From: a virus
Taxonomy: Duplodnaviria > Heunggongvirae > Uroviricota > Caudoviricetes
DNA: 17,769 bases
Reading direction: 5' to 3' (one strand)
Virus record (IMG/VR): IMGVR_UViG_2571042372_000007
Under the pieces are notes generated by a model. That model worked only from the letters and a program-made list of their open reading frames with translations. It had not been told where the DNA came from and did not search any database. Below, piece by piece: positions 1,369 to 17,769 of this stretch. Both the position numbers and the translations under genes were made by a program. Position 1 is the stretch's first letter. Each line of letters opens with the position of its first letter.

Positions 1369-1444
1369 GCCGATATAGCTCAGTTGGTAGAGCAGCGCAT
1401 TCGTAATGCGAAGGTCGTAGGTTCGACTCCTATTATCGGCACCA
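1369..1444 (+). tRNA. thrW: tRNA-Thr (anticodon CGT)
   Basis: 76-nt cloverleaf GCCGATATAGCTCAGTTGGTAGAGCAGCGCATTCGTAATGCGAAGGTCGTAGGTTCGACTCCTATTATCGGCACCA: 7-bp acceptor stem GCCGATA/TATCGGC, anticodon loop with CGT, T-arm GGTTCGACTCC, encoded 3' CCA. Position downstream of proA matches thrW. Confidence 0.93.
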
Positions 1445-1559
1445 TTCTAATGTCTCCCCAAGTCTACTCAAGTATTTAAAAACCTCTTATAATCCGCATG
1501 TTAGCGCCCCTTTTAGTCTTTTGACGTCTACTTAAGTACTCCAAAATCTACAGTCAATT

Positions 1560-1608
1560 GGGGGTACTTTTGGGGGTATTTGCTGTTCGGTTTAGTGGAG
1601 GTACCCCC
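1560..1608. promoter_or_regulatory. Inverted/direct GGGGGTAY repeats overlapping the int ribosome-binding site
   Basis: GGGGGTAC (1560-1567) and GGGGGTAT (1572-1579) direct, GTACCCCC (1601-1608) inverted; the int SD GGAGGT (1597-1602) sits inside the right arm. Confidence 0.4.
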
Positions 1609-1610
1609 AA

Positions 1611-2825
1611 GTGAAACTCAATGCCCGTCAAATAGACACTGCCAAGCCAAAAGAGAAGGCTTACAAGCTGGCTGATGGTGGTGGTCTGTATCTCTTGGTA
1701 AAACCTAGTGGAGGAAAATATTGGCGCTTCAAGTATCGTGTAGCTGGTAAAGAGAAGCTGTTAGCACTAGGTGTGTATCCTGAAGTTACCTTGGCTGATG
1801 CTCGTGCAAAACGTGAAGAAGCTAAAAGGGGTATCGCTGGGGGTATCGATCCGATGGAAGCGAAACGAGAGGAAAAGATTGCCCGGGAAACGCAGTTAAA
1901 CAACACCTTCAAAGATATTGCCCTTGAGTGGCACAGCAGCAAATTAAAAAAATGGTCTGCTGGTTATGCTTCAGACATCCTCGAAGCCTTCAACAAAGAT
2001 GTGTTCCCTTACATTGGCAAAAAACCAATCGCCGAAATCAAACCACTTGAACTGCTGAATGTGCTGCGGCGCATCGAGGGGCGCGGTGCTACCGAAAAAG
2101 CCAAAAAAGTGAGGCAGCGATGTGGGGAAGTTTTCCGCTATGCAATTGTCACTGGACGTGCTGAGTATAACCCTGCACCGGATCTCACCAGCGCGATGCA
2201 AGGTCATGAATCTAATCATTATCCTTTCCTCACAGCCAAAGAATTACCTGATTTTTTCAAGGCATTGTCCAGTTACTCAGGAAGTGCATTGGTTGTTATG
2301 GCGGCTCGTTTACTGATTATCACCGGTTTGCGGACTGGCGAACTGCGCGGTGCATTATGGGATGAAATCGATCTCAACAAGGCTATCTGGGAGATACCTG
2401 CTTCACGGATGAAAATGCGTCGCCCTCATGTAGTGCCTTTGTCTGAGCAGGCTCTTTCGCTTATTGGGCAGATTAAAGAACTAACTGGCAATTATCCGCT
2501 TATGTTTCCCGGCCGTAATGATCCAAGGAAAACAATGAGCGAGGCTAGCATAAACCAAGTATTTAAACGCATCGGCTATAACGGAAAGGTTACTGGTCAT
2601 GGCTTCCGGCACACTATGAGCACCATTTTGCATGAGCAGGGCTATAACACCGCGTGGATAGAGACACAGCTTGCGCACGTCGATAAAAACTCAATTCGTG
2701 GCACATACAACCATGCGCAATATCTGGATGGGCGGCGGGAAATGCTTCAGTGGTACGCTGATTATATGGATTCGCTCGAGCATGGCGGAAATGTGGTGCA
2801 TGGTGAGTTCGGAAAATGCGGGTGA
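1611..2825 (+). CDS. int: P4-family tyrosine integrase (site-specific recombinase), GTG start
   Basis: 404-aa ORF; N-terminus MKLNARQIDTAKPKEKAYKLADGGGLYLLVKPSGGKYWRFKYR is the typical P4-integrase arm-binding region; C-terminal catalytic region with HGFRHT and a downstream conserved Tyr; directly adjacent to a tRNA gene. Confidence 0.9.
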   Translation: MKLNARQIDTAKPKEKAYKLADGGGLYLLVKPSGGKYWRFKYRVAGKEKLLALGVYPEVTLADARAKREEAKRGIAGGIDPMEAKREEKIARETQLNNTFKDIALEWHSSKLKKWSAGYASDILEAFNKDVFPYIGKKPIAEIKPLELLNVLRRIEGRGATEKAKKVRQRCGEVFRYAIVTGRAEYNPAPDLTSAMQGHESNHYPFLTAKELPDFFKALSSYSGSALVVMAARLLIITGLRTGELRGALWDEIDLNKAIWEIPASRMKMRRPHVVPLSEQALSLIGQIKELTGNYPLMFPGRNDPRKTMSEASINQVFKRIGYNGKVTGHGFRHTMSTILHEQGYNTAWIETQLAHVDKNSIRGTYNHAQYLDGRREMLQWYADYMDSLEHGGNVVHGEFGKCG

Positions 2826-4220: not shown

Positions 4221-5021
4221 ATGAAATTTCCAAAAACGCCCGTACAGGGGCGGGGCTTCGTTCGGCCTGAAAACCAGAATCTGCAAAATTTCGGCGAAAT
4301 TATCCCGATTATTTCCGGCGTTATTGGCGGGAGTGAAACCACTATTGTTAGCGCCAGAGCGTTACATAAGGCGTTAGGTGTAGGGCGCGTTTTCCGTTCG
4401 TGGATCAAGGGGCGCATTGAAGAATATGGGTTCACGGAAGGCGTGGATTATGAGGTTGTTGAATATTTGAGCCGACCCGATCCGGTGAGCGCAAAATCTC
4501 GCCAGCAAACCGCTCTTGAGTACATCATCACAGTGAACATGGCGAAAGAACTGGCGATGGTCGAACGTACCGAACAGGGCCGCGCCGTTCGCCAGTACTT
4601 TATCAAATGCGAGGAGGAGCTACACAAGGTTGCGCCTGTTCGTTCCGCAGCGTTACGCCGGGAACTGAAAGCCCGTATCACAGTTGCCAGCTACTTTAAG
4701 CCAATGTGTGCCGCGCTGGAGGCGTACCGGGCTGAACTGGGTAAAAACACACTCCAGCACCACTACACCACGGAAGCGAACATGCTGGCGCGTATCGTGC
4801 TGGGTGGCATGACTGCAAAACAGTGGGCACTGGCGAACGGCATTACAGGCGAACCACGCGACCACATGAGCACGTTGCAGCTTGAGCACCTTTCTTACCT
4901 TGAGCAGAGCAATATCACGCTGATTGAGTTAGGCCAGGACTACCACCAGCGGAAGGCTGAATTAATTCGTCTTTCGCAGCGTTGGTTAGCCCGTCGTATG
5001 GAGGAAAACAGCCATGTGTAA
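4221..5021 (+). CDS. Phage antirepressor-family protein (ORF6N/Ant-like N-terminal domain)
   Basis: SD CAGGAG before ATG; motif SARALHKALGVGRVFRSWIKGRIEEYGFTEGVDYEV resembles the antirepressor N-terminal domain signature (LH..LGV...F..WI..RI..YGF.EG.DY). Assigned from memory of the family pattern. Confidence 0.55.
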   Translation: MKFPKTPVQGRGFVRPENQNLQNFGEIIPIISGVIGGSETTIVSARALHKALGVGRVFRSWIKGRIEEYGFTEGVDYEVVEYLSRPDPVSAKSRQQTALEYIITVNMAKELAMVERTEQGRAVRQYFIKCEEELHKVAPVRSAALRRELKARITVASYFKPMCAALEAYRAELGKNTLQHHYTTEANMLARIVLGGMTAKQWALANGITGEPRDHMSTLQLEHLSYLEQSNITLIELGQDYHQRKAELIRLSQRWLARRMEENSHV

Positions 5022-5480
5022 CGCTCTGACCGTTACAAAAAGAGAAAGCGCCCCGTTGCCGGAGCGCCTTTGTGAACGAATAGCCTACTGCGCCATATTG
5101 CTTACTGTCTACGAGGCAGATTATAGCGTTGTGGTCGCACAGAGTGAAGGCGCTGATCACCGTTACTACAGCACGCCAGAAATGCAGAATATTTTGCTGC
5201 AAAATGTCGTTGGTCACACTGTCCGGAAAGCAAAAAATTTTGCTGGTGGCGCGACTGATGCGATTTTGTCAGGTCGCCAGGTGCTGATCAATCTGATGTC
5301 TGATTTCGTTCTGGATAAAACAAAGGCGACCGCAGAGGGCCGCCAGTGGGAAAGCTACATACTTGAACGCATCGCCAACAATGCCAGATTTGCGGCTGGT
5401 GGGCAATGTGTCAGCTTTGCACCAATGACTCTATGTTTAACTGAGGGTCATTATGGTGAATATGCTGGCTTGCTGGTGGG
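5014..5480 (+). other. ORF translationally coupled to the antirepressor gene (ATGTGTAA overlap); 3' end undefined
   Basis: Starts MCNALTVTKRES at the same CATGTGTAA junction type seen at 6593, which argues the start is real. The frame has no stop until 6600 and turns Cys/Ser-rich and junk-like from about residue 155. End coordinate is approximate. Confidence 0.3.
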
Positions 5481-5738
5481 CTATTCCTGCTCTTTAACAT
5501 TGCCATGCCGCGATGTTTTCCAGGTATGCGACCCCATTTTTGTGTGCCTGTACTCTTTAAGGAATTTCTCAAGGACAAACGCACAGGGCGCGAATCTGTC
5601 TGACTCATGCTCGTACGCTATCTTTCTGCGCTGTCTTTTCCGTGCCGGTGATGGTGTATTGGTTGATTCTTTGTTGGTCATGGCGCTGCCCTGTAAAATA
5701 ATGCACCGTAGTTCCTCACACCACGGCACCTATAGTGG

Positions 5739-6044
5739 TTATTCCTGCTCTTTAGCTTTGCGCCGCTGGAGTTCTTCACGCGCGACGGTGACGAGTTGCC
5801 CGATTTCCTCGGCAGCTTTGACTCCGATTTTTTCCACCTGCGCTAGGGCATCGAGCGAAGAAACCAGGGGATTTTCTCCGCTTCCTTCTGCCTGGCGGCG
5901 GGCGATTTCACCGCGAACGGCTGTAATCACGAAAGCGGCTATTGTTTCCCCTTCCGTTTTCGAATTTTCCATTTCCTCGATTACATCATGGGGGAAGCGG
6001 ATATTTTTCATTTGCGATCTGCTGTTGATGTTTCCTGTTGCCAT
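5739..6044 (-). CDS. Small protein, possible ribbon-helix-helix-type regulator, divergent from the replication operon
   Basis: 101-aa minus-strand ORF MATGNINSRSQMKNIRFPHDVIEEMENSKTEGETIAAFVITAVRGEIARRQ; an N-terminal beta-strand-like segment followed by helices looks RHH-like. Weak SD; start may instead be the internal MKNIRF. Confidence 0.45.
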   Translation of the reverse strand: MATGNINSRSQMKNIRFPHDVIEEMENSKTEGETIAAFVITAVRGEIARRQAEGSGENPLVSSLDALAQVEKIGVKAAEEIGQLVTVAREELQRRKAKEQE

Positions 6045-6135
6045 CAGAATGTCCGGTTATTTTGAGGTGTGTACACATTACACCAAAAGGTGTGTTGATA
6101 AAACACTTGACACTGTAGCACACTTAAATTTAATT

Positions 6136-6168
6136 TGTATATACACCAATTGTTGTGGTGTATATACA
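6136..6168. promoter_or_regulatory. 13-bp perfect inverted repeat (TGTATATACACCA N7 TGGTGTATATACA) in the divergent intergenic region
   Basis: Arms at 6136-6148 and 6156-6168 are exact reverse complements; located between the minus-strand gene (ends 6044) and the plus-strand operon start (6235). Additional GTGT/ACAC dyads at 6065-6090. Confidence 0.6.
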
Positions 6169-6234
6169 GCAACGCCCCGCAGTGGTGGCACACATGCAGG
6201 GCGTCTAACCAAACCGTTAAACGAGGTAACGATT

Positions 6235-6600
6235 ATGGCTGGAACACAGCATACCCAAACTCACCCTAAATTTATATACACCTTCCTGGCGGTGCACCGT
6301 GATTGCATTGCTGACGGTAAAAACACTGTACACGTAGCCGCCGATACGCTGGTTGATGCCTGCGAGATGCTCAATGACATGGGCTATATCTCGGCAACAT
6401 GGAAAGGGCGCGAAGAAAACACGCTGTTTATTCAGAAATGCGAAAACAATTTTATCTGGCGTTTTATCGCCCTGAGTACGGCACAACCGCGCGTGATTCA
6501 CATCGAGGCCACCAGCGAACAGGAAGCACGCCAGCAATCTCCTGATGGCTGCGTGATGGTATTCGCTGCCCGTATTCGCCAGGAGGTGGAGCATGTGTAA
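6235..6600 (+). CDS. Hypothetical protein, 121 aa (first gene of the replication operon)
   Basis: ATG 6235 preceded by SD-like GAGGTAACG; the protein-like tail of the 528-aa track ORF (MAGTQHTQTHPKFIYTFLAVHRDC...); stop overlaps the next gene start (ATGTGTAA). Confidence 0.55.
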   Translation: MAGTQHTQTHPKFIYTFLAVHRDCIADGKNTVHVAADTLVDACEMLNDMGYISATWKGREENTLFIQKCENNFIWRFIALSTAQPRVIHIEATSEQEARQQSPDGCVMVFAARIRQEVEHV

Positions 6601-6817
6601 TGCAACATGGCCTGATGCAGCGGTAGACGCTATCAAAACGCTGATGGATTCACTTATTGAGATTTCTGCTATCGCTGGTGTGGCGCATAAACACGCAGCC
6701 AGAGAATCAGAATGCATCTCCCATTATTTAGCATTTGTGCAGCTAAAAGCCGATCAGGCACTGGATAAGGCCGGAAAAATTATCATGGCTGATGTGCAGG
6801 AGGTGCACCATGCATAA
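6593..6817 (+). CDS. Hypothetical protein, 74 aa
   Basis: Start coupled to the upstream stop; ends ...QEVHHA with stop overlapping the next start (CCATGCATAA). Confidence 0.5.
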   Translation: MCNATWPDAAVDAIKTLMDSLIEISAIAGVAHKHAARESECISHYLAFVQLKADQALDKAGKIIMADVQEVHHA

Positions 6818-9998: not shown

Positions 9999-10325
9999 AT
10001 GACTAAAAATACTCGTTTTTCCCCCGAAGTCCGTCAACGGGCAGTCCGTATGGTTCTGGAAAGTCAGAGCGAATATGACTCACAATGGGCGACAATTTGT
10101 TCCATTGCTCCAAAGATTGGCTGTACGCCGGAGACTCTGCGTGTCTGGGTTCGCCAGCATGAGCGGGATACCGGGGGCGGTGATGGAGGGCTCACCACCG
10201 CTGAACGTCAGCGTCTGAAAGAGCTGGAACGTGAAAATCGTGAACTGCGCCGCAGTAACGATATCCTTCGCCAGGCTTCCGCTTATTTTGCGAAGGCGGA
10301 GTTCGACCGCCTCTGGAAAAAATGA
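9999..10325 (+). CDS. IS3-family transposase OrfA (HTH and leucine-zipper region)
   Basis: 108 aa, [55 protein letters not shown]...[30 protein letters not shown]. Confidence 0.85.
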
Positions 10326-11212
10326 TGCCACTGCTGGATAAGCTGCGTGAGCAGTACGGGGTCGGACCGCTATGCAGCGAACTGCATATTGCCCCGTCAA
10401 CGTATTACCACTGTCAGCAACAGCGACATCATCCGGATAAACGCAGTGCCCGTGCGCAGCGCGATGACTGGCTGAAGAAAGAGATACAGCGCGTATACGA
10501 TGAAAATCACAAGGTATACGGTGTGCGTAAAGTCTGGCGTCAGTTGTTACGGGAAGGTATCAGAGTGGCCAGATGCACTGTGGCACGTCTCATGGCGGTT
10601 ATGGGACTTGCCGGTGTTCTCCGGGGTAAAAAGGTCCGTACGACCATCAGCCGGAAAGCCGTTGCCGCAGGCGACCGCGTAAACCGTCAGTTCGTGGCAG
10701 AACGACCTGACCAGCTGTGGGTGGCTGATTTTACTTACGTCAGCACATGGCGGGGCTTCGTCTATGTGGCGTTCATCATTGATGTGTTTGCCGGATACAT
10801 CGTGGGGTGGCGGGTCTCATCGTCCATGGAAACGACATTCGTGCTGGATGCACTGGAGCAGGCGTTATGGGCCCGTCGACCGTCCGGCACGGTCCATCAC
10901 AGTGATAAAGGTTCTCAGTATGTATCGCTGGCCTACACACAGCGGCTTAAGGAAGCCGGATTACTGGCATCAACAGGAAGTACAGGCGACTCGTATGACA
11001 ACGCGATGGCGGAGAGCATCAATGGTCTTTACAAAGCGGAGGTAATACACCGTAAGAGCTGGAAAAACCGTGCAGAAGTGGAACTGGCCACACTCACGTG
11101 GGTGGACTGGTATAACAATCGACGATTGCTGGAAAGGCTGGGCCATACTCCTCCGGCAGAAGCAGAAAAAGCTTATTATGCTTCCATCGGAAACGATGAT
11201 CTGGCAGCCTGA
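10322..11212 (+). CDS. IS3-family transposase OrfB (DDE catalytic domain), expressed as OrfAB by -1 frameshift
   Basis: 296 aa; overlaps orfA by ATGA; DDE-type integrase core (WVADFTYV..., [10 protein letters not shown]..., YDNAMAES...) characteristic of IS3 transposases. Confidence 0.85.
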
Positions 11213-13221: not shown

Positions 13222-13320
13222 ATCAGTAAGGGGCGGTTATTGCCCCTTTCCTCCATACCCACAACGCATTCCCTTTCCGCATGAAATTATTTTTTATCGT
13301 ATATGCATGAGGTGAGCTAC

Positions 13321-13848
13321 ATGTTGATGAGTAAAGCCGAATACGCCAAATACAAAGGCGTAAGCCGCCAGACAGTTTACGACTGGCTCGAGAAAGGCGA
13401 AGTGGTCATGTCCGGTAAAAAAATTGATGTGGAAGCGACAGAGCAGCGGAACAGCCCACCAGCACAGGGGAAAGACACCATTTCTGAAATGTGGCCAGAA
13501 AGAACGCTGGAAATGACATGGGGCGAGTTCTGGAAAGCAGTTAAGGCCAGAGACGGTAAAATTCCTGCGCCAGTAACGGACGAGGGCATACAGCAGCGTG
13601 TGCTGTATGCAGCCGGGGAATTAGGCTGGGAAGTGCACTTTCTTGATGATGGTGCTATCTGTCTTGAGGATGATGAAGGGCAGCATTACTTTGAAAAATA
13701 CAATTTGCGAGGTAATGCCAGGCTGGCAATTCGTATGCTGCGTTGCGAACTCTGCTATGTTGCCAGCGATTGTCCCGATGAACAGGACACATGGAGTGAG
13801 GCAGGACTAAACGCCTTGGCTGAATGGGAAAAATCAGGCCATCAATGA
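13321..13848 (+). CDS. HTH-domain DNA-binding protein, about 176 aa
   Basis: SD GAGGTG 6 nt before ATG 13321; N-terminus MSKAEYAKYKGVSRQTVYDWLEKGEV is a canonical helix-turn-helix; lies directly upstream of the GTGTCAA repeat array. Confidence 0.6.
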   Translation: MLMSKAEYAKYKGVSRQTVYDWLEKGEVVMSGKKIDVEATEQRNSPPAQGKDTISEMWPERTLEMTWGEFWKAVKARDGKIPAPVTDEGIQQRVLYAAGELGWEVHFLDDGAICLEDDEGQHYFEKYNLRGNARLAIRMLRCELCYVASDCPDEQDTWSEAGLNALAEWEKSGHQ

Positions 13849-13854
13849 CCTCAA

Positions 13855-14136
13855 AAAGTGTCAAGTTGAGCAGTTTGCCAGGTTGACACTTTACACTCTG
13901 AACGCGAAAAAGTGTCAACCTCGCTGGATGCCTCGCCATTACTGGCCTTGTACCATATTCACCACGTCAAAAAACCGAAAAAATAGCGAAAAGTGTCAAG
14001 TTGCCATGCTTAGAAATGCTAAGGTTTGATAAGGTTTTTCGCGAAAAAGTGTCAAGTGTGTCAACCTGCGGTATTAAGATTTATTAAGGTCTTAAGCCGG
14101 AAAGTGTCAACCAGCCCCTAAGATTTCCTAAGGTGT
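13855..14136. repeat. Array of AAAGTGTCAA(S) repeats (six direct, one inverted) with paired TAAGRTT half-sites
   Basis: AGTGTCAA cores at 13857, 13911, 13992, 14048, 14103, plus GTGTCAACC at 14058 and inverted TTGACACT at 13883; AAGGTT/AAGATT pairs at about 14020-14037, 14076-14095 and 14119-14136, giving three tandem units of about 50 bp. Confidence 0.65.
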
Positions 14137-14141
14137 AAATC

Positions 14142-14321
14142 ATGACCATCACCGAAGCCGATATGCTGGAGATGCTCCGCAGCATTGCCGAAATCAAACA
14201 ACCAGCAAGCAAAATTAACAGGTGTTCAGCGCCTGTTTCCGTTGTGCTGCAACAGGAACGCCACCAGCATGATGATGTGAGGCCGTATCAGTGGAAGAAA
14301 CCGGACAGGCTGCGGCGATAA
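14142..14321 (+). CDS. Small hypothetical ORF, 59 aa
   Basis: ATG 14142 with SD AAGGTG 5 nt upstream; below the 60-aa cutoff of the supplied track; MTITEADMLEMLRSIAEIKQ... Confidence 0.3.
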   Translation: MTITEADMLEMLRSIAEIKQPASKINRCSAPVSVVLQQERHQHDDVRPYQWKKPDRLRR

Positions 14322-14670
14322 AGGGTTGTTTAAAAGGTAGTTAAAAATTGAGTTCGCTAGCCGTCTAGCTTATCGATGCGTTAATTGGTTGATATTTTTT
14401 ATGTCGTAATATTGTGTTCTGTGGCTGGTGGGAGTTTATGTTGAAAACTGCCGATTCTGATAGGCTTTTTGCCATACGTATGCAGGAGAATTGACCATGT
14501 GAAGCAGGCAGGCATGTTGAGGAGAGCACTTACGCAGGATTGCTTAATCATTATTGAAAGACTCTGTGTTTCAAGTATCCTAATCAGTTAACTTCAGGAG
14601 CAAATTTTGAGCTTATACGGATCCCCGTATTATGAGCCTCAATTGAAAATTTTGGGTAAGTGATTTAAAG

Positions 14671-15897
14671 ATGATTGCAGGCGCGAAAAGAGGGAGAAAC
14701 GAACGCAAGGGGCTTCACTCTTGGCATCCATACTATGCGGGCTATTCAGAGTCATTTGTGGCTTCTGTTTTGCAGGCTGAAGGAGTTAAGTCGTCCGCTA
14801 CCGTTCTTGATCCTTGGATGGGAAGCGGTACCACTGGTATAGTTTGTCAAAAGCAAACCATAAAGTGTATTGGAGCAGATATTAATCCTGTAATGAGCTA
14901 TTTTGCTGCAGCCAAAAGTAGGGATAATATTTCAGCGCTGGATTATACCGGAGAGCAACTCCTGGAAAGGATACTGCTTTGCTTTAGAAAAAAAACAAAA
15001 GATATAACTGAGTCATCGAAGGGCTATCCACTTATTGAACAGTTACAAAAGTTTTATAAATGTATCTGTGATCAGTTTATGGATAAAGGACAAAATGATA
15101 TCGTAAATCCTTTAAAAGCATTTTATTGCAGTGTTTTATTTTATACTGTTCGCAATGTCCTTGATGTTAGGTCAACTTCAAATCCTACATGGATTTCTAA
15201 AAAAGTAGACTTTAATAATAAATTTGATATTTGTTTTGAATATAATAAAAATTTTAAAATTATGCGTGAGCAGTTAAGTGAATATTATGGCAGCGCTAAT
15301 GGGGGGGCATGTTACTCGATTTTAAACGTGGATAGTAAAAAATTAAATATTAAAAGTAACACAATTGATCTTGTTATTACATCGCCACCGTATTTAACAC
15401 GAATAGACTATGCCGTTTCTACTCGTCTTGAGTTGGAAATAATTTTAGGGAGTGAGGGATATAAGTCTCTTAGAAAGGAAATGATGGGCACGACGACTGT
15501 GCCTAAAGTTGCGGATGAAATTAATAAAAAATGGGGGCCATTGTGTATGGATGTTTTGTCATCGGTAACATCGCATACATCAAGAGCATCTGGAAGTTAT
15601 TACCTTAAAAATAAAATTAGATATTTTTCTGATGCGTATGAGTCATTAATGGAAATCTTTAGAGTTTTAAAGGTAGGTTGCTCTGGTTATTTTGTAATAC
15701 AAAATTCATATTATAAGGAAATAGAGATTCCGCTTTATGATATTTATTGTGAAATGGCGCTTTCTATTGGGTTTTCAGAAGCGAAATGTGTGAGAGAAGA
15801 TCAAGTTAAAGCAATATTTGGACAAATAAATACCAAGTCAAAAAATTATATTAAAGATAAAGTTTATTTTGAAAAAATCATAAGGATAACAAAATGA
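14671..15897 (+). CDS. SAM-dependent methyltransferase (putative DNA N6-adenine/N4-cytosine MTase), motif I before motif IV
   Basis: 408 aa; AdoMet-binding motif DPWMGSGTTG (about 14809-14838) and catalytic SPPY (about 15384-15395) in the ITSPPYLTRIDY context; AT-rich; stop overlaps the start of the next gene (ATGA). Confidence 0.75.
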   Translation: MIAGAKRGRNERKGLHSWHPYYAGYSESFVASVLQAEGVKSSATVLDPWMGSGTTGIVCQKQTIKCIGADINPVMSYFAAAKSRDNISALDYTGEQLLERILLCFRKKTKDITESSKGYPLIEQLQKFYKCICDQFMDKGQNDIVNPLKAFYCSVLFYTVRNVLDVRSTSNPTWISKKVDFNNKFDICFEYNKNFKIMREQLSEYYGSANGGACYSILNVDSKKLNIKSNTIDLVITSPPYLTRIDYAVSTRLELEIILGSEGYKSLRKEMMGTTTVPKVADEINKKWGPLCMDVLSSVTSHTSRASGSYYLKNKIRYFSDAYESLMEIFRVLKVGCSGYFVIQNSYYKEIEIPLYDIYCEMALSIGFSEAKCVREDQVKAIFGQINTKSKNYIKDKVYFEKIIRITK

Positions 15898-17006
15898 ATG
15901 ACGTAACTAAATTGCTATCTCAGATAGATGAAAAAAGAGATGAGGTAGTAACTGATTCTTATACCATATCATGGCGTGAAGTAATTAATCTATATAAAGA
16001 AAATGAGATAACCATTTCTCCAGACTACCAAAGGCTTTTTCGTTGGGATAACGCAAGACAAAGCCAATTTATCGAGTCATTACTTTTAAATATACCTACG
16101 CCAACACTTTTTTTCTACATTGATAATAATGGTAAGCAGGAGGTTATCGATGGATTGCAACGTGTGAGTACTATAATTAGATTTTTTTCAGAGGATATTT
16201 TTAATAAGGAAGAAATAGATAATGCAAAGAAACAAAACTCTGTAAATGATGTCCGTAATCCAACTGTTCTTGATGATGTGCCTATAATTACAGAATTAAA
16301 TGGATGGACTGCAAAAGGATTGCCGGACAAAGTTAGCCGAACTATAAAAAATGCGCGAGTAAATGTTGTTATTTTGGAGCAAGAAACAAAACCTGAAACT
16401 AAATATAATGTTTTTAAACGACTGAATAGGTCTGGTGTTCGTTTGAGTGACCAGGAAATACGTAATTGCATGGCTAGATTAGCAGGGAATGAATTTGCAG
16501 ATCGCTTACGTAAGATGGCCGAAATTGATGGTATTGTTCAAGCTCTTGGAATAAATGAAGATGGCCAAAAATCTCAAGGTGTTGAGGAAGCTTTGCTACG
16601 AGTTATGGCATCTTTGACTTATGCGGATAAATTTAGCCATAGTGTAACTGACTTTTTGGATGAATTTATGTTCTACGCGGCAGAACATAATGTTATTGAT
16701 ATTAATTTTGAATTAAAAATAAAAAGAACTTTTGATTTGATAAATATTGCTGGTTTATCTGGTAAAGCATTTAAATTTAGAAAGGATGGTGCTCCAAGTG
16801 GCCCGTTTAGTACTAATTTATTAGATGTTGTTGCTGTTGGTATTTTTAGTAATGTAGATAATTTAACACCTGCTGAGGTGGCGAAAAGATTTGATTATTT
16901 AATGGATGGTGAGATCAAAGAATTAAGAGCTTGTACTGGTTCTGGATCTAATACTAAAGCCAAATTAGAGAAAAGAATCGCTCTTGGGAAGAAGGTGTTT
17001 GGATAA
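15894..17006 (+). CDS. DUF262 (ParB/Srx-like NTPase, GmrS-type N-terminal domain) protein
   Basis: 370 aa; signature SPDYQRLFRW (about 16017-16046), IDGLQR (about 16144-16161, canonical DGQQR) and FKRLNRSGVRLS; no recognisable fused nuclease (DUF1524/HNH) domain. Confidence 0.75.
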   Translation: MNDVTKLLSQIDEKRDEVVTDSYTISWREVINLYKENEITISPDYQRLFRWDNARQSQFIESLLLNIPTPTLFFYIDNNGKQEVIDGLQRVSTIIRFFSEDIFNKEEIDNAKKQNSVNDVRNPTVLDDVPIITELNGWTAKGLPDKVSRTIKNARVNVVILEQETKPETKYNVFKRLNRSGVRLSDQEIRNCMARLAGNEFADRLRKMAEIDGIVQALGINEDGQKSQGVEEALLRVMASLTYADKFSHSVTDFLDEFMFYAAEHNVIDINFELKIKRTFDLINIAGLSGKAFKFRKDGAPSGPFSTNLLDVVAVGIFSNVDNLTPAEVAKRFDYLMDGEIKELRACTGSGSNTKAKLEKRIALGKKVFG

Positions 17007-17007
17007 A

Positions 17008-17769
17008 ATGAGAATATCAGATTTCGATGATTTCAAGGTGATGTTGGAAAAGACGAAAAATGAAAGTCTTGGATTCCTTGAGAGCATAAAGTCTATTAAT
17101 GAGTTTATGTCGAGATCAGGTGATAAAGACAAGGAGGATATGTTTAGAATAATATCGGTCCCAATGATTTATTCTTCTTGGGAGGGTTTTTTTACTGAAA
17201 CAATGTCAGTTTGCTTAAATACATTGAAACTCTCAGATAGAGAGGCATTTAGATACTCTGCAGAAATTCGAGCACTTTGGTTGCAACGAGAACCATTTTA
17301 TAGCAAGTATGTAGATATGATAAAAAATATTTATGATGCTGACTCACACCGAAGCATTGTCCATAATGGCGCCCAAATAAAAAAGAAAGTTACGAAGGGG
17401 GCGTTTAAACTAACAAGTGAGGTAATTCAACACATTGACAGGTTTAATAAATCCACATTATCAGATTGCGATGTTTCTGAATTAGTTATGACATTTTCCA
17501 ATGTGAATGAAATGGTTGTCAAGGTGAATTTCGATGCTATAGGTTTGGATTATTCATCACTTGATTTATCGCAACTAGGTGAGGTTGTTGGCCTTAGAAA
17601 TTCTTTGGGACATGGGGAGTTTAAAAGTAGTGTTAACCCTAGGAAATTTAATTCAATAATTGTGTATGTGGAAAATCTGATCATCGATTTGAATCAATGT
17701 GCTATAACGTGGTTGGATAAATTAGAAGATGAAATAACTAAGCCTGAAGATAATGAGACTATTCAGTGA
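17008..17769 (+). CDS. Hypothetical protein with HEPN-like Rx4H motif (candidate RNase effector)
   Basis: Preferred start ATG 17008, one nt after the upstream stop (the track's 16984 is a TTG); 253 aa; C-terminal LRNSLGHGEF (about 17593-17622) fits the HEPN R-x4-6-H active-site motif; complete, stop at 17767-17769. Confidence 0.55.
   Translation: MRISDFDDFKVMLEKTKNESLGFLESIKSINEFMSRSGDKDKEDMFRIISVPMIYSSWEGFFTETMSVCLNTLKLSDREAFRYSAEIRALWLQREPFYSKYVDMIKNIYDADSHRSIVHNGAQIKKKVTKGAFKLTSEVIQHIDRFNKSTLSDCDVSELVMTFSNVNEMVVKVNFDAIGLDYSSLDLSQLGEVVGLRNSLGHGEFKSSVNPRKFNSIIVYVENLIIDLNQCAITWLDKLEDEITKPEDNETIQ

Follow-up and report, generated by a model that had tools for sequence, protein, structure and literature searches.

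A methylase-coupled DUF262-HEPN cassette in a thrW island of Escherichia coli, a candidate anti-phage module

Pairs of a DUF262 protein and a small HEPN protein are already linked to phage defense by experiment. PD-T4-2, from Escherichia coli ECOR65, was validated by Vassallo et al. (2022); it protects against T4, T2, and T6, and its deletion sensitizes the native strain. As cloned in that study, on 1.8 kb and without a methylase, it consists of a DUF262 protein and a HEPN protein of ~165 aa, which HHpred places in PF18735 (97.8%) and PF18737 (96.9%). Here we analyze a 17,769-nt stretch of DNA (IMG/VR record IMGVR_UViG_2571042372_000007; the whole stretch is referred to below as the window) that ends in a cassette of three genes, encoding a DNA methyltransferase (methylase), a DUF262 protein, and a HEPN protein. 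Judged by its sequence, the cassette is a putative variant of the DUF262-HEPN pairs of the PD-T4-2 type, with a methylase coupled to it, and it matches a kind of operon already catalogued in 2013. In that catalogue, Anantharaman et al. (2013; Biol Direct 8:15, Table 1) list operons in which a HEPN protein of the MAE_28990 / RiboL-PSP type (Rx4-6H) occurs with a ParB-like protein, there called "ParB nuclease," and a DNA methylase; the entry is computational and comes without an experiment, a mechanism, or a name for the system. Makarova et al. (2013) described DUF262/COG1479 fused to HNH, PD-(D/E)xK, or HEPN domains, and Li et al. (2025), reporting on Menshen, consider PD-T4-2, Dazbog, and Menshen to be DUF262 systems without DUF1524 that are largely uncharacterized. 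What is new here is that linkage to a methylase is universal in this clade, that the methylases are of the SPPY type only and come in two topologies, and that DUF262-HEPN occurs either in alternation with XhoI-type restriction enzymes or stacked on them; the 2013 entry is silent on both the two methylase classes and this interchange.

The cassette resembles PD-T4-2 in that a DUF262 gene is followed by a gene for a small HEPN protein of the same Pfam families (PF18735/PF18737), and its DUF262 protein matches the PADLOC model PD-T4-2_A (PDLC04027) over the full length (1.1e-41; residues 28-369, model positions 41-361 of 363), a likeness drawn from profile models and Pfam families only. It differs in its methylase, whose gene overlaps the DUF262 gene and has no counterpart in the cloned PD-T4-2, and in its HEPN protein, which has 253 aa as opposed to ~165 aa and gave no PADLOC match at E<=1, the PD-T4-2_B model included. 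The Menshen model NsnA outscored PD-T4-2_A on the DUF262 protein (1.2e-55, residues 16-366 of 370) and was its best model match, and the sensor architecture of NsnA, a ParB-DUF262 domain followed by a helical DNA-binding ("ParBDB") part, is shared. However, Menshen joins NsnA to the ABC-ATPase NsnB and the inPIN-effector NsnC, whereas the cassette has an adjacent HEPN effector and a methylase. Membership in Menshen was rejected: NsnB and NsnC are both absent, and an ATPase gene is found neither in the cassette nor in the 375 bp leading up to attR. A further pair lies at the genome end of Peduovirus P2_4B2 (L046 140-2015), where a 381-aa DUF262 protein (NsnA 5e-55, PD-T4-2_A 9e-35) is followed by a 239-aa protein. 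It repeats the pattern of the window, and we rejected it as a proxy for PD-T4-2 because NsnA outscores PD-T4-2_A and the partner has no PADLOC match; it may be another DUF262-effector pair in the P2 hotspot.

Three other kinds of system invite comparison. PD-λ-5, in its authors' words a "compacted prophage RM+Abi system," comprises a ParB/HEPN fusion and a Dam-class methylase, gives broad phage protection, and needs a Δmrr host (Vassallo et al., 2022). Like the cassette it unites ParB-like and HEPN-like domains with a DNA methylase, but its ParB and HEPN parts form one protein of ~500 aa where the cassette has separate genes, its ParB part matches ParBc and not DUF262, the signal for HEPN is weak, and the methylase belongs to the D12 (Dam-like) type as opposed to N6_N4. 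We rejected homology, the architectures being analogous only and no PD-λ-5 model appearing among the PADLOC matches listed, which are complete for the DUF262 protein (11 families) and the HEPN protein (0 families) and comprise the best 25 of 43 for the methylase. GmrSD, BrxU, and SspE have in common with the cassette the DUF262 domain, an NTPase and sensor of DNA modification; the mark recognized by SspE is the product of its host's own modification genes. In these enzymes a DUF1524 HNH DNase is fused to DUF262, whereas the partner in the cassette is a separate HEPN protein (RNase-type), and a Type IV enzyme of the GmrSD/SspE kind was rejected because there is no DUF1524 domain. With Type II restriction-modification (R-M) systems the cassette has in common methylase motifs I and IV and methylase families that elsewhere pair with XhoI-family (PF04555) genes, but no known restriction-enzyme domain or remnant of the partner families was found in the window or its flanks, and DUF262-HEPN takes that position instead. 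A preliminary description of the locus, made from the letters of the sequence, had been unable to assign the architecture to a named system, and no characterized system was found to match it exactly. The novelty which that description attached to the cassette was nevertheless over-rated, as the DUF262+HEPN pair corresponds to the experimentally validated PD-T4-2 and the operon type was catalogued in 2013. As far as the available text of the literature extends, including the Menshen, Vassallo, DefensePredictor, and Domainator papers, it holds no named or tested system of methylase, DUF262, and HEPN, and the three RefSeq accessions of the cassette do not occur in the part of the DefensePredictor supplements that was covered.

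We propose, at what we judge to be an even chance, that the cassette is a three-component R-M-like anti-phage module, carried as cargo by a satellite-like island at thrW, in which the methylase marks self, the DUF262 protein senses, and the HEPN protein aborts. The methylase would mark a specific site in the DNA of host and island, and the DUF262 protein, as a ParB-like NTPase with a helical DNA-binding domain, would read the modification state of DNA as in GmrSD, BrxU, and SspE. Unmethylated DNA would thus count as non-self: on meeting unmarked incoming DNA, the DUF262 protein, possibly in complex with the HEPN protein, would release or activate it, and the HEPN RNase would then cut cellular or phage RNA (tRNA, mRNA, or rRNA), leading to growth arrest or abortive infection. 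A narrower version is held more tentatively and falls somewhat short of an even chance. According to it, the DUF262 protein reads the mark of its own methylase (probably N4-methylcytosine, m4C), unmarked DNA unleashes the HEPN RNase with no DNA being cut, and this arm can be interchanged or stacked with XhoI-type enzymes.

The protein assignments on which this proposal draws had been anticipated in the preliminary description, which read the genes as a methyltransferase, a DUF262 protein without a DUF1524/HNH nuclease, and a HEPN-like protein with an Rx4H motif. Profile searches bear out all three, and every motif it had quoted was found (DPWMGSGTTG and SPPY; DYQR, DGLQR, and FKRLNRSG; LRNSLGHGE). 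The methylase matches Pfam N6_N4_Mtase (PF01555; 6.6e-14, 52.8 bits, two stretches) and the PADLOC Type II methylase model (MTase_II; best 8e-28); its match to MethyltransfD12 (0.015) is below the cut-off, and a PDB sequence search gave matches around motif I only. Motif I (DPWMGSGTT, aa 47-55, nt 14809-14835) comes before motif IV (SPPY, aa 238-241, nt 15382-15393), and the methylase is therefore circularly permuted relative to the beta-class N6_N4 methylases. The ~180 residues between the two motifs are probably the target-recognition region. SPPY is the form of motif IV typical of N4-cytosine methylases, and both it and motif I are kept in 5/5 orthologues of the permuted class (class 1, below). 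A Vibrio homologue with 43% identity bears the automatic name "cytosine-N(4)-specific," and this name together with SPPY weakly suggests that the product is m4C.

Pfam finds GmrSD_N alone in the DUF262 protein (PF03235; 9.8e-27, residues 32-192) and no DUF1524/HNH in any of the three proteins. The motifs given for DUF262 in the literature (QRxxxW, DGxQR, and FxxxN) are present as QRLFRW (nt 16029-16046), DGLQR (nt 16149-16163), and FKRLN. All three are invariant in an alignment of 25 sequences, and QRxxxW and DGxQR occur in 31/31 DUF262 proteins. In an AlphaFold model (pLDDT 88), an alpha/beta domain at the N-terminus is followed by a C-terminal half that consists of helices only; the top structural matches of the model are BrxU and SspE (7p9k, 6jiv) and ParB N-domains. 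A PDB sequence search with the DUF262 protein gave no match. The HEPN protein scores above the Pfam cut-offs of both HEPN_RiboL-PSP (PF18735; 1.8e-15, 57.8 bits vs. 28.4) and HEPN_MAE_28990 (PF18737; 3.9e-7, 30.9 bits vs. 26.8), with no match in a PDB sequence search, and its structural model shows the four-helix HEPN fold at moderate confidence (pLDDT 72). Its catalytic-type motif, R197-N-S-L-G-H202 (nt 17596-17613), belongs to an RNxxGH pattern that is invariant in 35/35 HEPN proteins. HEPN defense proteins characterized so far cleave tRNA or mRNA, and we infer that this one is an RNase.

The conservation of the trio was assessed in related loci obtained by searches seeded with a HEPN alignment, 11 of them in genomes and 29 in metagenomes. 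Represented are Enterobacterales, Vibrio/Shewanella, Janthinobacterium, Rhodocyclaceae, and delta-proteobacterial and Acidobacteriota metagenome-assembled genomes (MAGs), so that the loci span Acidobacteriota along with Gamma-, Beta-, and Deltaproteobacteria; another is carried by a Paraburkholderia plasmid, the sole match in the plasmid collection, and the HEPN search of the phage collection gave no match. The DUF262 gene is immediately 5′ of the HEPN gene in 38/38 loci holding both, with spacings mostly between -28 and +28 nt and two exceptions (+143 and +232). An N6_N4 methylase is encoded within ~2 kb in 27/27 loci that are sufficiently long to judge, and none of the loci that extend 2.2 kb or more upstream and 1.3 kb or more downstream is without one. 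The suggested link of the methylase to DUF262-HEPN is upheld by synteny kept across phyla. The methylases fall into two classes, both with SPPY. Class 1, the permuted type of the window, is directly 5′ of DUF262 in 9/9 HEPN-seeded loci that carry it, and the two genes overlap in 8/9. The 4-nt overlap seen in the window recurs in six loci (L003, L005, L014, L017, L018, and L019), in orthologues down to 43% methylase identity; the exception to overlap is the Janthinobacterium trio (L013), which has a 19-nt gap and retains synteny at 37.5% methylase and 27% HEPN identity. Class 2 methylases are canonical beta-class proteins of ~340-400 aa and are found on either side of the DUF262-HEPN pair. Two trios of this collection lie directly beside defense genes, Shedu SduA in L010 (4521-5675) and a gene with an AbiJ_NTD4 domain in L012 (2325-3260), which is a defense-island context. 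In L007, an insertion with a 347-aa open reading frame (ORF) on the opposite strand interrupts the DUF262 gene (4570-6784), and a gene for a DDE transposase with DUF772 and DDE_Tnp_1 domains lies 3′ of the HEPN gene.

Independent sampling from the methylase side used eight distant class 1 homologues. Three of them (Bacillus siamensis, Rhizobium leguminosarum, and Peribacillus) adjoin a full DUF262-HEPN pair, and a fourth, from Clostridioides, adjoins a DUF262 gene, the 205-aa neighbor of which lacks a Pfam match. The other four are plain two-gene pairs: in Laspinema the partner is an XhoI-family restriction enzyme, and in Inquilinus, Paenibacillus, and one metagenome genome it is a conserved protein of ~280 aa, which in Peribacillus is fused to the methylase (P0212 residues 430-709, of 709 aa in total). 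Members of this ~280-aa family have no Pfam match and always adjoin methylases (L049 4145-5011, L053 3141-4004, and L055 3141-4004, with further members at L052 5267-6100 and L011 8805-9677); it is probably an unrecognized restriction-enzyme family. Many class 2 loci likewise include, beside DUF262-HEPN, an XhoI-family gene (PF04555, 3e-74) or a gene of one of two other restriction-enzyme-like families, the second of which has ~238 aa (L038, L045, L009, and L037). XhoI-family genes were seen next to SPPY methylase families with or without DUF262-HEPN (L006 5091-5858; L007, L021, L023, L032, L039, and L050). Since these methylase families pair elsewhere with XhoI-family or other restriction-enzyme-like genes, DUF262-HEPN occupies the position of the restriction partner, consistent with a module on Type II-style SPPY methylases that stands beside a restriction enzyme or replaces one. 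The E. coli cassette has no known restriction-enzyme domain, and neither the window nor the sequence downstream of the cassette yielded a remnant of the three partner families; by its gene content it is predicted to be of the "in place of" type.

Several observations weigh against a module that is gated by its own methylation. PD-T4-2 works, and is tolerated, without a methylase on its 1.8 kb clone, and a DUF262-HEPN pair therefore need not depend on self-methylation; its action on the hypermodified T-even phages suits a sensor of modified DNA better than one of unmodified DNA. In an Acidobacteriota MAG (L009, ~4320-4330) the methylase has an in-frame stop directly after SPPY while DUF262 and HEPN appear intact. 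This contradicts obligatory protection by the methylase unless the stop is an assembly error, and either a pseudogene or such an error would account for it. The restriction-enzyme-like genes of many related loci could be what the methylase serves, with DUF262-HEPN riding along, and, on the side of the HEPN protein, the model is of moderate confidence and the PD-T4-2_B profile misses the protein, as given above. On the other side, every full-length copy of the related trio genes has kept its catalytic motifs intact.

The first of these points leads to an alternative that we consider unlikely, in which the cassette is Type IV-like: DUF262 would sense modified phage DNA, as GmrSD, BrxU, and probably PD-T4-2 and Dazbog do, and trigger the HEPN protein, and the methylase would be separate, whether an orphan, an anti-restriction function, or the remainder of a lost restriction enzyme. 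That DUF262 enzymes of known specificity read modified bases, and that PD-T4-2 protects against T-even phages when cloned without a methylase, speak in its favor, and mobile elements often carry orphan methylases. However, a separate methylase is hard to reconcile with its presence in every informative locus across phyla and with its restriction to two SPPY-type families, or with the ATGA overlap that joins it to DUF262 here and in orthologues as distant as noted above, L013 being still syntenic. Moreover, additional specificity would be required of a system that attacks modified DNA while it carries a DNA methylase of its own.

An equally improbable alternative is a conventional R-M system, in which the DUF262 protein is itself a DNase that cuts unmethylated DNA and the HEPN protein is an accessory or second-line effector. 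It would agree with the term "ParB nuclease" of Anantharaman et al. (2013), with the placement of DUF262-HEPN where XhoI-family or other restriction-enzyme-like genes adjoin the same methylase families, and with a match of the PADLOC REase_II model to the N-terminal 100 residues of the DUF262 protein (9e-10). This match, however, covers ~100 of 372 model positions, only about a quarter. In BrxU, SspE, and GmrSD, DUF262 is the NTPase/sensor and cleavage needs the DUF1524 HNH domain, which the cassette lacks, and the presence in every locus of a HEPN protein with an intact active-site motif suggests that HEPN is the effector.

The genomic setting is that of cargo on an integrated element. The window is a piece of E. 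coli chromosome that begins with proA (1-1254) and the tRNA-Thr gene thrW (1369-1444), followed by an integrated island with genes for a tyrosine integrase, a helix-turn-helix regulator, AntA/AntB, YlcI/YnfO, an Icd-like protein, DUF4222, and a DNA primase; it further holds an IS3 copy (9999-11212), small genes without known function, and then the cassette. A second copy of the 3′ end of the tRNA-Thr gene together with the 5′ end of the integrase gene (window 1439-1869), 89-93% identical, lies ~375 bp beyond the end of the window (L002 24144-24562, about window 18144-18562), which makes the cassette the final cargo of the island, adjacent to attR. Beyond the repeat lie an integrase remnant (Arm-domain fragment), a MarR gene, and the vat island, and the repeated ends indicate tandem islands at thrW. 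Sister thrW islands resemble the window only as far as about 14,070-14,535, after which their cargo differs. In that of E. coli 94EC, the slot (window 14.1-17.8 kb) is filled by genes for an AAA ATPase and a DUF4435 protein (L044 21265-23221), a pair which we take to be PARIS-like, and in that of strain 537-20 by unrelated hypothetical genes; the former suggests a hotspot for defense cargo next to attR. The gene order, the downstream repeat, and the variable slot agree with the earlier placement of the cassette at the accessory end of a satellite-like element, and the variable slot, along with homology to PD-T4-2 and NsnA, sustains its reading as a defense locus.

The cassette was found in 13/5,426 complete E. 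coli genomes, always at >=99% identity, and a scan of IMG/VR yielded an identical copy in one "viral" contig and nothing besides this copy of the island. Its GC content is 30-35%, compared with 40-58% in the remaining window, so that the three genes are AT-rich, as had been claimed. This foreign composition and the identity of 99-100% across 13 strains that are unrelated to one another point to recent horizontal spread. The same two features also speak for a selfish element, and Type II R-M systems are known to behave as addiction modules. With its R-M-like architecture and its location at the edge of a mobile island, the trio might mainly stabilize the island through post-segregational killing as methylation is diluted, rather than defend against phages. 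We think this slightly less likely than the two alternatives above, as the closest tested relatives are anti-phage and the same slot in a sister island holds the AAA ATPase and DUF4435 pair; addiction is moreover compatible with defense and thus no exclusive alternative. Finally, although the PADLOC model matches assemble into no named system, it is very improbable that these are independent or decayed neighbors without a joint function, given that the genes overlap or abut, are syntenic from E. coli to Bacillus and Acidobacteriota, and retain their catalytic motifs.

The three genes and both of their junctions are where the preliminary description had placed them (Table 1). The three ORFs are not chance products, since each has full-length homologues in other genera (E-values down to 1e-100 or lower) and the same three genes are annotated in RefSeq, as "DNA methyltransferase," "DUF262 domain-containing protein," and "MAE_28990/MAE_18760 family HEPN-like nuclease." Promoter and terminator scans gave nothing informative, and the number of sigma-70-like sites was not above the shuffled expectation; the one candidate listed (L002 20554-20581) lies just beyond the end of the matches to related islands (about 14112-14535).

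Table 1. Coordinates of the cassette genes, their junctions, and a promoter candidate (window numbering).
Feature	Position	Strand	Description
Methylase gene	14671-15897	+	408 aa ORF
DUF262 gene	15894-17006	+	370 aa ORF; ParB-like GmrSD_N protein
HEPN gene	17008-17769	+	253 aa ORF; RiboL-PSP / MAE_28990 families
ATGA stop/start overlap of methylase and DUF262 genes	15894-15897	+	Read from sequence
TAA-A-ATG junction of DUF262 and HEPN genes	17004-17010	+	TAA 17004-17006, A, ATG at 17008
Weak sigma-70-like promoter candidate 5′ of methylase gene	14554-14581	+	Consensus match only, 9/12 hexamer positions

Some further features of the island were observed outside of the cassette. The IS3-family element has a programmed frameshift and is inserted in the island at a position where sister islands have ProQ/FinO-family and PerC-family genes; the hypothetical gene that follows it encodes 380 aa in sister islands and is cut to 942 nt in the window. 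A 16-nt motif, CGCGAAAAAGTGTCAA, is present in three copies (13849-13864, 13903-13918, and 14040-14055; two exact, one 81%) just 3′ of the ORF at 13303-13848, within the part that is common to the sister islands, and may be an operator or iteron-like element.

The candidate is well supported; as specialists have predicted a system of this kind since 2013, its surprise value is moderate. If the proposed logic is true, the cassette would join epigenetic self-marking to abortive RNA cleavage in a compact 3.1-kb module that is moved by satellites between enterobacteria, and, were the narrower methylation-gated version correct, it would combine R-M logic with an RNA-targeting, abortive output. It could also show why an SPPY-type methylase invariably accompanies one DUF262-HEPN clade but not PD-T4-2, and would offer a genetically tractable E. 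coli example of how the DUF262 sensors of Menshen, PD-T4-2, and Dazbog read DNA. The cassette is a good, compact E. coli candidate for understanding the link that DUF262 sensors make between DNA modification and an RNase.

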